From Octopus vulgaris (Eukaryota): 64,000 bases of DNA. The notes under the pieces are model-generated. The model was given only the letters and a program-made list of their open reading frames with translations. It searched no databases and was not told the DNA's origin. Made by a program: the position numbers and the translations under genes. The DNA lies in the NCBI GenBank assembly GCA_951406725.2, contig OX597821.1:79174001-79238000 (forward strand). Direction: 5' to 3'. Positions 17,620 through 63,011 of this stretch are shown here, one piece after another (position 1 is the first letter of the stretch; every line of letters begins with the position of its first letter).

Positions 17620-17691
17620 AGTGTTTTTAAACTGGGCAGATCATGGAAAGCTTGCACTTCGATCGTTTCAATATTGTTATTTTGTAAATAT
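17620..17691 (-). CDS. LRR exon, class A: YLQNNNIETIEVQAFHDLPSLKT(L)
   Basis: 72 nt, cag/GTAAGT, no stop. Confidence 0.92.
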
Positions 17692-19903
17692 CTGTAACAT
17701 AAAATATATTTTCAAAGGTGAAAATGTACACGAATTGTATGATAAAGAATATTATTGCTAAACGAATACCTTCTGGAAGTTAAAGAACATGATAAATAGA
17801 ATTTGAAGATAATTTTGATGTTGCTCTAGACGGTGCAAGTTGGCAGGTTGCTAATATTGATGATAATGATGATTAATATGAAGAGAGTGAGCATGAAGAT
17901 ATGAATATATAAAGCAGTGGTGGACATTTATATTTGAAATTCGGGAAAAAGGTATGAATACGACAAAAGAAATGCTCGGAGTAAAATTGAAGAGTTTGAA
18001 AATAAAATGAAAATGAGAAGGAGGGAGAAATGATGAGGGGGATGGCGTAGAAGATGAAGAAGAAGAGAAACAGCATCAAAAGGTAGGAAAGATGTAAAAG
18101 GAGTAGAAGTGGGAAGTCGAATGAGTAAACTGGAAATGCTAGAAGTGGGATGAATTGAAGGATAAAATGAAGAACGATATGAAGAATTATAAGAAAGTGT
18201 TGAGTAGAGAATGATAATGTAGCAAAACCGAAGAAGAAAAAGAAGAAGGAGGAGGAGGAGGAGAAAAACATCAAGGAAATGAATAAGAAGAAGAATAACA
18301 CGAAAGCGAAGAATGTAGCATGATGACGAAAAAGGAGAAGAAAGAAGAAGAGAATGAGAAAAAAGTAGCAGCTTCAGAGAAAGAAGAAGACGAAGGAAAG
18401 GACGTAGATGAAGAAGAAGGGGGTAAAAAGAAGCGAAAGAAGAACAAAAAGAAGAAGAAGAAGAAGAAGAAGAAGAAGAAGAAGAAGATGATGATGATGA
18501 TGATGATGATGATGAGCAACAACAACAAGAGAAAAGTACGTGGAGAAGAAGAGACTTATAAAAAACACAGAGCAGCAGAGAAACACATGCGCACACAGAC
18601 GTATCACGTGATTTCAAAGAAACACACATGAATGTATATGTGTGTGTATATATACGAGGATAGAAAGAGAGAAGAGTTGAATTTCAGGGGAAGTGAATGA
18701 AACCGGAAGTTGTTGCTGCTGCTGATTTCTGTGGGCCATAAAGGAACTGAAGATGTAGCGAACTAGGAAACGTTGTTGAGGGATGATGGACACACAGACA
18801 CACATACTCCTATCACTTGAATGTCTATTGATCCACACTGAGACACATTCACAATGACACATTTAGCCATTGGAGAATAAGAAGGATTTGGGTAGAGACT
18901 GAAGGACAGGAGGTAGGTAACGGGTGTCGAGACAAAATTGTTAAATCTCATAAGAAAAACGAATCAAATAGCAAAGATGGTAAATGGGAAGAAAAAAACA
19001 ATAAAGGTAGGAGAAGAAGAAGAAGAAGAAGAAGAAGAAGAAGAAGAAGAAGAAGAAGAAGAAGAAGAAGAAGGAAAAAGAAAGAGGAGGAGATAAGAAG
19101 AAAAAGGAGGAGAAGAAGAAGAAGAAGAAGAAGAAGGAAAAAGAAAGAGGAGGAGATAAGAAAAAGGAGGAGAAGAAGAAGAAGAAGAAGAAGAAGGAAA
19201 AAGAAAGAGGAGGAGATAAGAAGAAAAAGGAGAAGAAGAAGAAGAAGAAGAAGAAGAAGAAGAAGAAGGAAAAAGACCTGGACGAAGTAGATGAAGAAGA
19301 AGAAGAAGAAGAAGAAGAAGAAGAACAACAACAACAACAACAACAACAAGAATACAGAACATGAAGGAGAGGAAAAAAGAAGTACAAGAAGAAGAAATAG
19401 AAGTAGAAAAAGGACAAGAACTAAAACAGCAACAACAATACCAAGATAAAGCTGAAGTCTATGATCGTAATCAGTGGTGATAGAAACATAGACATCGCAC
19501 AGATTTGTCTCCTCAATTGTCACACTTTCATATATTAATTATCTGTAGAAGAGGCTCTCACTCACATTCACACATTCTATAGAAAATACACTCTTTCGAA
19601 AGAGACAGAGTTTATACATACAAAAGCAAACGTTAATGGTTCACCTGAACTATCACGCTCTCGTATATCACGTAGCTAAGAAACGGACACACATTCTCTC
19701 TCTCCCTTTCTCTCTCTCTCTCTCTCTCTCTCTCTCTCTCCCTCTCTCTCACTCTCTCTTTCTCACGCACACATATTCCCAAACAATAAAACGCATCTTT
19801 CGAAAGTGGGTTGAGGAAGCTTAAAATGGAGGACGGGAAGATATTACAGATATAGAAATACATCTTCAACGAAATATTATAAGAAAGTAGATTTGTAACT
19901 TAC

Positions 19904-19975
19904 AGACTTGTTAAACTGGGTAGATTTCGGAAGGTGTCTGCTTTGATTTCCTTTATATCATTAAATGTCAAGTAT
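19904..19975 (-). CDS. LRR exon, class B: YLTFNDIKEIKADTFRNLPSLTS(L)
   Basis: 72 nt, tag/GTAAGT, no stop. Confidence 0.92.
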
Positions 19976-20529
19976 CTAGAAGATAATATTGAGTTAAGAA
20001 GGAATTGTATAGAAAATATTTGGCGGAAAAATTTGATGATGCTGGGCGTAGAATGTAGATCGCGGTTATGATAAGTTCGATGACGTACATAGCACAGTTA
20101 ATGATTTTGTTGTTAATGAGTGTAATGATGATTAAGAGGCAGATATCGAGTAGAAGGATTTTTTGGGTGGTGGATTTGATGCTGGACGACATGGTAGTGA
20201 GAAATATGTTGATGAGACAGAAGAGAATAGCATATGGTTTGTAGTGATGATGGCGAACATGTTAAGATGCTGATGGTGCAGCTGATGTTAATACTGATTA
20301 TTCTGATAATGACGAGGATTATCGTGTTTATGACGACGCTGCATATGATATTGTTTTTGATGTAGGTGGGAATGTGGACGTTGGCGATGATGATGATGAT
20401 GATGATGATGACGATGATGACGTTGGCGATGATGATGATAATGATGATGATAGTGCCTAAAATTCTGCGTCCGTTGTCAGTATTTTGTGGAATGAATGAT
20501 GTTGATGAAGAGGAACATAATGAACTTCT

Positions 20530-20895
20530 TAATTTTCATTTAATTTAATTTAATTTAATTTTTTTGGCTCAAAAAGCAAAAAAAAGGACATGTAGGGGGA
20601 CATGAAGTTATGTACAGGGAGGGTGTTCATACAAAGAGTTCAGGCCATTTCTGGTCAAGAGAACCGAGCGGTCGTCGGCATCTTCACCATCTCGTTCGGC
20701 AGCTTATTCCACGGATCCGCAACCCGGACGGAGAAAGCCCCTCTCCTTCGATTGAGATGAAAACGTCGTAGATAGAGTTTTTTGGAGTGACCCCGCAGCC
20801 CACGATCTGGAGCAGGAGTGAAGAACAACTCTTTCAAGAGGTTACATTTTCCGCTTATAATGTTGTAAGCAAGAATGAGATCAACATGGCGTCGC
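20530..20895 (-). mobile_element. CR1/L2-type LINE 3' fragment
   Basis: LRGHSKKL...FSVRVADPWNKLP is the typical ORF2 C-terminus; short-repeat tail at about 20535-20560. Confidence 0.75.
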
Positions 20896-60291: not shown

Positions 60292-61503
60292 CTGGAACAT
60301 AATATTAAGTTAAGAAGGAAGTGTAAAGAATATATTTGTGACAGAATATTGGCGAAACAATTAGATGATGGTTCGGGTGAAATGTATATCGCGATTATGA
60401 TTAATTCCATAAAGTTCATAGCAGCGATGATGATGTTAATGCCGATGATAATAAGGATGATGAAGGGGCGGAGGTGGAGTAGAAAGATTTTGACAGTGTT
60501 AGAATTTATAGTGGACGATATGGTAGTGAGGAATATGTTGATGAGACAGAGGAGAAGAGTATAATGGTTTGTAGGGATGACGACGAAGATGCTGATAGTG
60601 GGGAGATGTTAATTTTGATTATTCCCATAACGACGGGAATTAGCACATCTATGATGATGCTGAATATGATATTGTTTATGGTGTAAGCAGGGATAGTAAC
60701 GTTGGTGATGATGATGATAGTGTTTACGTTTCTGCATCTGATGGCAGTATTTTGTGGTAAAGAATTATGTTGATGAAGAAGGGGACCGTAATGAATTTGT
60801 TTATTCTTGAGAAAGGTAAGAATGAATATGTAAAGGACGACGGCGATGAGGATGTAGATGAGGAGGCCACAGGTTTTGTCGGCAATTTTTGTTGCTGGGA
60901 ATTACATAGGATAGGATCCTGACGAATAGAAAATCAAGAGAATGACAGAGAAAGGAGAAAATAAGAAGAAATATTGAGAAACAGGAAGTGAAATTCACGA
61001 AAGCAGAACAAAAAAGAAACGAGAAAGAATTGGAAGAAGTAGAAGTGAGATAAAATGAAGATAATGATGATAGTGAGGAATGATAATAATAATAATAATA
61101 ATAATAATAATAATAATAATAATAATAATAATAATAAGAAGAAGAAGAAGAAGAAGAAGAAGAAGAAGAAGAAGAAGAAGAAGAAGAAAATGATGGAGTA
61201 GAACATTGAAGATCAACAACAACAACCAGAATATATAGAAGATGTAAAACTCCTAATGATAATCAAAGGAGGTAGAGACCTAAACTAATTCATGATATAC
61301 AGAGTGAACTACACATAGATTTTGATATACTCGCACGCAGATATTCATAAATAAACAGACAGATTTTTACATGCACACACGCACACACACACACACACAC
61401 ACACACACACACATATATATATAATATATATATATATATATATATATATATATATATATATATATATATATATATTTCGTTTTGGGATTTGGTTGCAAGA
61501 TGT

Positions 61504-62423
61504 TGTTACGACCTGCCGTCGCTCAACTAAGACTCAGGACCCTAAGTCGAACGACGACGACTACGCTCAGTCAAATCGGAAATCCACCACAGAAAGCAGG
61601 ACTTGGCAGCGAACGCAAACCAGTAACCAACAACAACAGGAAGAGAGAGACAGCGGAAGGCAGTTGCTTACATTTAACAACAGTTTATACAATATTTACA
61701 ACATCAATTAAAACGTGATACATTTTAGATACATTTAAAGAAAAACATTTAACAGATCGTACAGAGTTAAAAGAAAAACAATCAATGGCATGCACAATGC
61801 AGAATTTGGAAAACAATCCAAATTAAAGTCTTTCTCTTTCTTTTAACACAATGCTCTTTTCCTTTTAGGAACACATCTCACAGTTCTTTTCTTTCTTTTC
61901 CACAGTTCTTTTTACAGAGTCTCTTTTCTTTTAACACACATCAAAATTCAACAACAAAAAGCATAAACAAACATTACCGCACGTTTTCTCGTTCACAAAA
62001 TCCTACTATAAGCAATCTAGCCTTCTCGCTGTCATCTCCTTTACTTCCTCTCGCTTGTCAAGTCCTCACTCCTCTCTGTCTGTCTTTCTTGCCTCGCTGT
62101 TGCCTCTCGCCATCACCGCCTTCTTGGCTGACCGTCTCTTGCCAACTGACTCCTTCTCCGGTTCTTGCTGACTGTCTCTGATCGACCCTCTCTCGCCAAC
62201 TGACCAACTAACCCCAATGCCAGCCGCATTTATAAAGGGTAGCGTTTTAATTTTTTTCTTAAACTTTCCCTGACCGTAGGGATCAAAATGCCACTTCCCA
62301 ACTCATTAACTTTTCCTTACCGGTGACAAGACAAATACCCATTACTTCTTTCTCCAGTCTGTCCGGCTCTAAACCAACGAAATTGGGTCATAGCACTTTC
62401 TCGTCTTTTTGAACTCCGCAACA
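61504..62423 (-). mobile_element. Solo LTR nested in a TA-flanked repeat
   Basis: TGTTACG...CGCAACA termini; homologous to 1799-2891; splits a repeat whose intact reverse-complement copy is at about 4810-4895. Confidence 0.65.
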
Positions 62424-62939
62424 CTACTTTATATGAGTTCGTGTGTTGAAGCATTTTCTGCTGTCTGGGGAGAGTCATTTTCTTTTATATATATATATAT
62501 ATATATATATATATATATATATATATATATATATACATATACGTTTCAACTAATTTATTTACTTAATTGTCACATACATACATATTTCAAATCTCAAGAA
62601 AGGGTCCTCACTCATATTTACACCCATGAACATACAGGGTGATCCCCCAAAAAACAAACGGAACCCATTATAATTTTATTAAATCCTAAAGAGATAGATT
62701 TCGGCGTGCATAGAAACATGCACATACATGCCCCATATGGTTTCCCTGAATGATCAAAATGTCATATATCTCATATCTACAAAATGGGCACACACTGACA
62801 CCCACAGATTCCCAAACACTAAAACCCATTCTGGGAAAGAAGTGTGAGGGAGCTTCATATGGAGGATGGCTAGATGTTACGGATTTAGAAATATATCGTC
62901 GATGAAATATATCCTATAAAAAGAAATTATTCTACTTAC

Positions 62940-63011
62940 AGTGTGTGTAAACTGGACAGATTTCGGAAGATATCGGCTTTGATTGCTGTAATATCATTTG
63001 AACTTAAATTC
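62940..63011 (-). CDS. LRR exon, class C: NLSSNDITAIKADIFRNLSSLHT(L)
   Basis: 72 nt, cag/GTAAGT, phase 2-2, no stop. Confidence 0.92.

Follow-up and report, generated by a model that had tools for sequence, protein, structure and literature searches.

Three-LRR super-motifs, the duplication of several repeats at once and LRR-bearing octopus adhesion GPCRs are all already known. The STT super-motif of TLR7/8/9, SLRPs, FLRTs and OMGP spans three LRRs and is ascribed to super-motif duplication (PMC1899181, PMC4030839), and the two-LRR (57-residue) super-motif of ribonuclease inhibitor is known together with exon duplication (Haigis 2002, as cited in PMC4030839). Repeat proteins grow by multi-domain blocks, most families having a broad range of unit sizes, and nebulin is an example with duplicated blocks of seven domains and four exons (Bjorklund et al. 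2006, PMC1553488). An octopus-specific expansion of adhesion GPCRs includes a group 3 in which LRRs are reported for 5 of 22 sequences (Ritschard et al. 2019, PMC6408891). Searches of literature lying mostly outside subscription turned up no description of super-repeats at the exon level in receptors of octopus, and the main text of PMC9795677 makes no mention of LRR or leucine.

The 64,000-nt stretch of Octopus vulgaris DNA analyzed here (hereafter the window; positions 1..64000) lies entirely inside one predicted adhesion-GPCR gene on the minus strand. It holds 24 LRR exons of 72 nt, 18 of which a preliminary description had sorted into three classes repeating strictly as A-B-C six times. 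All 18 were found where that description placed them, its coordinates being the plus-strand low ends (donor side) of minus-strand exons, and the class order in the transcript direction is C-B-A. Each of the 18 is 72 nt long, in phase 2, bounded by GT-AG and open in the LRR frame, and every exon of the array encodes one 24-residue LRR. Exons 13-31 of the 50 LRR exons in the predicted gene make up the triplet block. Exon 13, the seventh A exon, lies just beyond the window end (64002-64073), and the A-type donor flank that had been noted at the end of the window (63880..64000) belongs to it. There follow, placed by splice ends and clustering, exons 14 (C, 62940..63011), 15 (B, 60220..60291), 16 (A, 58580..58651), 17 (C, 57251..57322), 18 (B, 54985..55056), 19 (A, 51662..51733), 20 (C, 48454..48525), 21 (B, 42737..42808), 22 (A, 41014..41085), 23 (C, 39494..39565), 24 (B, 37165..37236), 25 (A, 36021..36092), 26 (C, 31580..31651) and 27 (B, 24366..24437). 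Exons 28 (A, 23491..23562), 29 (C, 22050..22121), 30 (B, 19904..19975) and 31 (A, 17620..17691), the last of the block, are also covered by the spliced contig described below. The six remaining exons, all on the minus strand, lie at 2940-13788. Exon 32 (13788..13859) is B-like by its flanks and by the tree where C would be expected, and so breaks the period; exon 33 (12304..12375) has intact splice ends and an open frame; exons 34-37 (at 8078, 6593, 4100 and 2940; 2940..8149) belong to a period-2 block that runs past the window start.

The three-exon pattern is real. In an unsupervised split into three clusters, exons taken with 60-nt flanks group by position modulo 3 in 18 of 18 cases, and exons alone in 17, exon 29 being the most B-like C and falling with B. 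No permutation of the exons or of the flanks matched the modulo-3 grouping (0 of 20,000 shuffles for each), and the strict class order has a chance expectation of 6/17,153,136. Exons separated by lags of 3, 6, 9 or 12 share a mean identity of 0.83-0.86, against 0.61-0.64 at the remaining lags. In a 51-row tree, every class (A with 7 exons, B with 6, C with 6) is split off by its own branch among the labelled rows in 100% of 200 bootstrap trees; the class branches have supports of 100/100 (A), 97/75 (B) and 96/90 (C), unlabelled exons fall within the B and C groups, and the closest relative of class B is class C. The splice flanks had been described as class-specific, and this was borne out in part. 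The 80-nt acceptor flank has its nearest neighbour in the same class in 18 of 18 cases, and flanks without the exon set A apart from B/C, but a three-cluster split of these flanks left B and C mixed, and with the donor flank by itself the 18 exons did not fall into three classes. The weakness of the B/C distinction follows from the sister relationship of the two classes.

The introns carry the history of the array. Introns of the same class can be aligned in register over 93-1,402 nt, with 71-87% identity, and self-matches of 1.5-2 kb cover an exon together with its adjoining introns (e.g., 54348-56151 against 59596-61474, 73% over 1,971 columns). Introns following A gave no alignment with those following B in four of six pairs; cross-class introns involving C are alignable in 11 of 12, because B and C are sisters. 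Whole triplets were therefore duplicated, long ago, which upholds the earlier proposal that a three-exon unit was amplified. The pairings of A and B exons in the tree match one another (B18/A19-B30/A31, B21/A22-B27/A28, B15/A16-B24/A25), in support of triplet amplification, but the C pairings disagree with them, which suggests that conversion or losses acted besides triplet duplication. The sister pairs of units 1/4, 2/6 and 3/5 do not fit a single simple tandem history, and Mantel tests between intron classes, in alignments disturbed by insertions, gave r of -0.20, 0.55 and 0.05 (best 62/720). Amino-acid identity within classes is 70-79%, lower than the 88% between exons 38-50 and O. bimaculoides, and the block is thus predicted to be common to both species.

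We favor, with a probability of about 0.72, a reading in which the LRR arm contains about six and one-third in-register triplets, likely produced by repeated unequal crossing over and likely retained as frame-neutral. An ancestral C-B-A trio would have been duplicated, and later crossovers within introns, between misaligned copies, would have preserved the register, with some conversion or loss blurring the tree. Frame-neutral exons were likely retained, since any number of them would still fold as a solenoid, and the site of the first breakpoints probably set the unit size. The outcome would be a 72-residue super-repeat whose structural core is likely under purifying selection. Unequal crossing over, which the preliminary description had also named, is the likely mechanism of copying.

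Evidence for splicing of the array comes from one contig of one run, X1, presumed to be RNA. This 390-nt contig contains the joints 17691-19904, 19975-22050 and 22121-23491, with CT..AC ends, which join four consecutive exons in order (A, C, B, A); on our reading, the rest of its sequence corresponds to exons 32 and 33. Consecutive exons are thus joined in order, and the super-repeat of 72 residues claimed earlier is likely present in the protein. The same three joints are not listed for runs X3, X4 and X6, and the joint 23562-24366 is absent among those listed for X1. Run X6 has no exon joints at all, which is not evidence of absence. The X1 contig stops at a branch point that coincides exactly with the upstream end of exon 28. 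A first read mapping over 35900-55800 was dominated by dispersed repeats and said nothing on splicing.

The triplet block is likely part of the ectodomain of a predicted octopus adhesion GPCR, as judged from the gene model and its homologs. The predicted gene runs from about 79,267,650 (ATG) to 78,961,684 (stop) on G000:C8, with 105 exons over 306 kb and 3,386 aa, and has the predicted order signal/LRRNT, 50 LRR exons, Cys-rich region, eight SEA-like/HRM modules, GAIN/GPS and 7TM. The LRR arm and 7TM exons are colinear on the same strand, in the order seen in homologs P0006, P0008, P0009 and P0011. A GPS motif (PF01825, E 1.6e-15; the genome has 63 GPS matches) lies just before TM1, in an exon at C8:79,003,520-79,003,651 (minus strand), and retains what we take to be an intact His-Leu/Thr cleavage consensus. 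The main 7TM exon is at C8:78,962,914-78,963,305 (minus strand); PF00002 (7tm_2) matches the TM5-7 exon with E 8e-12, identifying a class B 7TM, and the remaining TM exons were located by tblastn. Octopus proteins, named adhesion GPCR or GPR126-like, account for 11 of 12 matches to the 7TM exon (52-100% identity); the gene is in this respect of group-3 type, an Octopus-lineage class B receptor with a GPS/adhesion 7TM. The putative GAIN exons resemble the corresponding region in homologs, PF16489 scores 26.0 bits on P0011, below the cut-off of 26.5, and a low-confidence model of P0008 (mean pLDDT 45) matches CD97, GPR126 and BAI3 structures. For the SEA-like modules, a model of the module from the O. 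bimaculoides ortholog-like protein P0001 (pLDDT 86) has SEA structures at the top of its structure comparison (1ivz, Z 9.2, rmsd 3.1, 98 aligned; 9nrc, Z 9.2; 2e7v, Z 8.5), where unrelated ferredoxin folds tie with them; SEA structures are absent from its Foldseek top 50, and one exon of the SEA-like module has no Pfam match. The long ectodomain would bind an extracellular ligand or surface and signal via GAIN/GPS and 7TM, as adhesion GPCRs do. A class A receptor of LGR/GRL101 type was rejected, as the 7TM is class B and a genome search with PF00001 placed none at the locus among the 150 of 152 matches listed; a Toll-like receptor, the source name of P0001, was rejected likewise, since P0001 gave no TIR hit and the LRRs lead to GPS and 7TM. 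No annotated ortholog of the ABC block was found, the best match, P0014, being a paralog in which each repeat is identical at 10-17 of 23 positions. The adhesion-GPCR ectodomain, like the other periods described below, lies beyond what the window sequence had revealed to the preliminary description.

Could the array be something other than a germline record of copying in a membrane receptor? That the periodicity arose in assembly is a reading to which we give almost no credence. Simple repeats are frequent in the region, and SEA-like/HRM units 2-7 downstream are 98.4-99.9% identical, so that their number could be mis-assembled; for the LRR block, however, artefact is refuted by the divergence between triplet copies, which amounts to 7-23% for exons and about 20% for introns and is accompanied by distinct insertions, and independent runs filed under two further organism labels span exons 29-31 with their introns at about 98-99% identity. 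It is also very improbable that the array supplies cassettes for Dscam-like alternative splicing or VLR-like somatic assembly, yielding receptor variants. All exons are of symmetric phase 2, so the frame would survive any skip, human NLR LRR exons are described as modular and skipped (PMC6642158), and the X1 contig ends at an exon edge; yet that sole spliced contig joins its exons consecutively, the germline gene is complete and colinear, the triplet block has no hypervariable concave face, and no exon-skipping joint is listed in the runs examined, where contigs drop rare isoforms and minor skipping may occur. Somewhat less improbable, if still unlikely, is that this individual's gene is decaying or encodes a truncated, secreted LRR protein only, the array then not being part of a membrane receptor. 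One exon of the first SEA-like/HRM module, near C8:79,080,450, is 1 nt shorter than in homologs; with its usual donor the frame ends in a stop codon at residue 1592, and reading on to full length requires a weaker donor that lies 4 nt away, so the shortfall may truncate the predicted receptor. In a convergent neighbouring paralog the GPS exon contains a stop and the 7TM exon a frame break, and the upstream DNA examined yielded no LRR exons. Against decay, every one of the 50 LRR exons and of the GAIN/GPS/7TM exons has an open frame and GT-AG ends, the shortfall sits in a short homopolymer run, a frequent place of assembly error, module 1 is frame-neutral when skipped whole (522 nt), and P0001 of O. 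bimaculoides continues through the site.

A different question is whether the triplet itself was selected, as a three-LRR concave pattern for a periodic or multivalent ligand such that only in-register duplications survived. Although the introns have diverged by about 20%, one central concave position is nearly fixed in each class (one residue in 7/7 A, two residues in B and two in C), the 19 exons include no unit that is out of register, and N-glycan sequons are predicted on B and C and on 0/7 A exons. Three-LRR units also recur independently in the family, in P0006 and in an array on contig C29 (14.09-14.23 Mb, lag 4) whose four-exon unit includes one exon with a TT donor and would be reduced to three on splicing if that exon is skipped. 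Such recurrence is unexpected under a purely neutral view. The C29 unit, however, is not orthologous to C-B-A, as both its non-A exons group with C in the tree, and homologous recombination alone gives in-register expansion. Pairwise dN/dS within class is 0.25 (A), 0.50 (B) and 0.53 (C), with 0.11 at core positions, and at concave positions within class it reaches 0.85, near neutral; the concave face of the block (pN 0.20, pS 0.29) is not hypervariable, in contrast to that of a young C29 paralog (pN 0.176, pS 0.006). Periods other than three are found along the same gene, at lag 1 (exons 1-12), lag 2 (exons 34-41) and lag 4 (exons 41-50), and in relatives, a second C29 array (14.86-14.89 Mb) having lags 6 and 2 and a C10 array no detected period. 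These periods suggest that three is probably a chance result of copying, with no special design behind it, and we regard a selected triplet as unlikely. Equally doubtful is the wider proposal that octopus adhesion GPCRs tune arm length and binding at two nested scales, LRR blocks and recent SEA-like/HRM spacers, with the triplet a selected periodic surface that binds a repetitive ligand and arose on more than one occasion. Were the triplet selected, a periodic ligand would be predicted.

On the preferred reading, in-register triplet copying by unequal crossing over, the gene is a clean record of repeat-protein growth, with units of one, two, three and four exons in one gene, introns that are alignable, and LRR blocks standing beside a much younger five-exon amplification. 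Public annotation splits this receptor into misnamed pieces ('toll-like receptor 5', 'LRRC15-like' and a bare 7TM), and octopus group-3 adhesion GPCRs therefore probably have ectodomains far larger than published domain counts imply.

Among vertebrate receptors, ADGRA2/3 (GPR124/125) combine LRRs with HRM-GAIN-7TM and ADGRG6 (GPR126) combines SEA with HRM-GAIN-7TM. These have few LRRs and a single module, whereas the octopus gene has 50 LRR exons and eight SEA-like/HRM modules, and, unlike in vertebrate ADGRA2/3, no Ig domain was found in homologs. With the group 3 receptors the gene shares a class B 7TM with GPS and tandem expansion in the octopus lineage; one-LRR exons, super-repeats, 50-LRR arms and repeated SEA-like/HRM modules are not described in the available portions of that paper (PMC6408891). 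A three-LRR super-repeat is common to the STT proteins and the octopus array, but STT consists of a short 'bacterial' LRR and two 'typical' LRRs, and in TLR7 it spans about 80 residues (PMC1899181, PMC4030839). In the octopus array A, B and C include no such short (S) LRR, all being 24-residue typical repeats with one exon each, present in six copies with alignable introns. Ribonuclease inhibitor and the NLRs (PMC6642158) likewise have LRR solenoids grown via frame-preserving exons with a higher-order periodicity, but they are intracellular and of a different LRR class, whereas the octopus unit comprises three exons with their introns. The nebulin unit, finally, is fixed and tied to function (PMC1553488), whereas the octopus family has units of 1, 2, 3, 4 and 6.

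Inspection of the window sequence showed that the 18 exons described in the preliminary description as a strict A-B-C series repeated six times are 72-nt exons on the minus strand with AG/GT ends, the listed positions being their low ends. Each encodes an open 24-residue LRR split inside a leucine codon. An exon scan found six further minus-strand LRR exons of the same kind at 2940-13788, and the A-type donor flank noted at the window end belongs to a seventh A exon that starts in the flanking DNA, at 64002. When the 18 exons were clustered without position information, all 18 fell in phase if 60-nt flanks were included, and 17 of 18 did so on exons alone. 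Flanks alone split A from B/C with no further division, so the claim of class-specific splice-site flanks stands for A vs B/C and is weak for B vs C. None of 20,000 shuffles matched the observed period-3 contrast, and exons whose spacing in the series is divisible by three share 0.83-0.86 identity, vs 0.61-0.64 for exons at other spacings. The exon phylogeny suggested as a check separated the three classes: in a 51-row tree, a single branch cuts off each of A, B and C from all other labelled rows in 200/200 bootstrap trees, with unlabelled exons placed inside B and C. Smaller trees agree, except that exon 13788 is placed within B. The three-exon pattern is real.

None of the sequencing runs is recorded as RNA. 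In one 390-nt contig from run X1, which may be RNA, exons 28 to 31 in transcript order (A23491, C22050, B19904 and A17620) are joined in order with canonical ends, and by-eye reading matches the remaining letters to exons 32 and 33 (13788 and 12304). No exon 28-31 joints are listed for runs X3, X4 or X6, and neither an exon-skipping joint nor an exon 27-28 joint is listed for the single X1 contig.

The window corresponds to C8:79,174,001-79,238,000. A profile scan of 264 kb identified 50 LRR exons, all 72 nt long except exon 42, which has 69 nt (23 residues; minus strand, C8:79,154,812-79,154,880, locus L012). An O. bimaculoides "toll-like receptor 5" protein (P0001) aligns colinearly with exons 38-50 (12 exons compared, mean 88%) and has an equally short repeat, so the short exon 42 is conserved. 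The N-terminus of P0001 looks like intron read-through. In public annotation P0001, P0002, P0014 and P0019 are family fragments under unrelated names (TLR5, LRRC15-like, LRRC4-like and a bare 7TM). Upstream of the LRR exons lie an exon with a hydrophobic N-terminus (a signal peptide by eye) and an LRRNT-like segment; downstream are an LRRCT-like exon and two Cys-rich exons (weak Ly6 match, E 0.21). Beyond these, eight tandem five-exon modules (C8, about 79,024,300-79,094,600; loci L019-L025) show a weak HRM match (E 0.003) and a ferredoxin-like fold that is probably SEA. The 3′ part carries GAIN-region exons, an intact GPS and a 7tm_2 domain. Octopus proteins account for 11 of 12 matches to the TM5-7 exon, which is 100% identical to a protein labelled Octopus sinensis by its source. 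The joined model (105 exons, 3,386 residues, about 306 kb) is a predicted adhesion GPCR of very large size, whose nested amplifications differ in age.

Modules 2-7, mutually 98.4-99.9% identical over about 7 kb, are a very recent amplification, and copy-number polymorphism of the modules is likely. The fifth exon of module 1 (about C8:79,080,416-79,080,519, locus L020) lacks 1 nt relative to its homologs, within a short homopolymer run, reflecting either a frameshift allele or an assembly error. With the usual donor, the predicted protein meets a stop at residue 1592; the frame is kept if module 1 is skipped or if a weaker donor lying 4 nt off is used.

How did the triplets arise? Introns of the same class align (71-87% identity over 93-1,402 nt), and single matches of 1.5-2 kb cross one exon plus both adjoining introns in register. 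The proposed amplification of a three-exon unit by unequal crossing over is probably right. Four of six cross-class pairs between introns after A and introns after B gave no alignment, whereas 11 of 12 cross-class pairs involving C align, because B and C are sister classes. A and B exons return the same three sister pairs (chance of a match 1 in 15); the C exons pair differently, and the sister pairs are incompatible with one simple tandem history. Mantel tests between the intron classes gave mixed correlations (r -0.20, 0.55 and 0.05). The triplets would have multiplied via repeated unequal crossing over, plus some conversion or loss; this is a known kind of event, and the copies are old relative to modules 2-7. 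Two tandem repeats were also noted in the window: a ~530-bp unit in the exon 35-36 intron (4939-6402; roughly 2.7 copies, 99% identical) and a 256-bp unit inside a dispersed repeat (33034-33512; 1.9 copies). The + strand shows a strong G and A skew that persists across the window (1-64000; cumulative GC skew 8.1). The skew coincides with purine-rich microsatellites, which occur in most of the introns; the gene itself is on the minus strand.

Three is probably not special as a unit size. A privileged three-exon period could appeal to the homologous protein P0006, which by eye has triplets of its own, and to a paralogous array (C29:14,086,000-14,227,000, loci L041-L055; about 50 LRR exons), where one exon of a very young four-exon unit (copies 96-100% identical) has a TT donor, so that the spliced period would be three. 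The best lags elsewhere in the same gene are nevertheless 1 (exons 1-12), 2 (exons 34-41) and 4 (exons 41-50), and the three paralogous arrays, examined in part and each with a GPS match downstream on the same strand, gave period 4 (0.96 over the first 17 exons), 6 and 2, and none. A convergent paralog on the + strand of C8 (about 78,895,600-78,941,100) carries a 7TM exon that is nearly identical and has a frame break, and its GPS exon contains a stop; no LRR exons were found in 120 kb upstream, and it is probably a pseudogene.

Within-class pairwise dN/dS in the block, from pairs that are not independent of one another, is 0.25-0.53 overall; by site, the concave face reaches 0.85, against 0.11 in the core and 0.37 at the other positions. 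At concave positions pN (0.20) is below pS (0.29), and a rapidly changing concave face is not evident in these sequences. Among the near-identical exons of a young paralogous array (C29:14,857,000-14,893,000, loci L076-L079), nearly all differences fall at concave positions, where pN is far above pS (0.176 vs 0.006; 11 pairs), a strong sign of diversifying selection there.

Growth of repeats by multi-domain blocks of variable unit size is described as general in part of PMC1553488, and a passage of PMC6642158 covers LRR exons that preserve frame. Octopus-expanded adhesion GPCRs, some LRR-bearing, are reported in PMC6408891, with expression in nerve cord, suckers, skin or gills. In the literature searched we found no account of the exon-level architecture of the octopus block, a point on which supplements could bear. 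What the analysis adds is the gene around the block, predicted to encode a very large adhesion GPCR and carrying nested amplifications. According to passages of PMC1899181 and PMC4030839, ribonuclease inhibitor has a two-LRR super-motif, and TLR7/8/9, SLRPs and FLRTs have three-LRR super-motifs.
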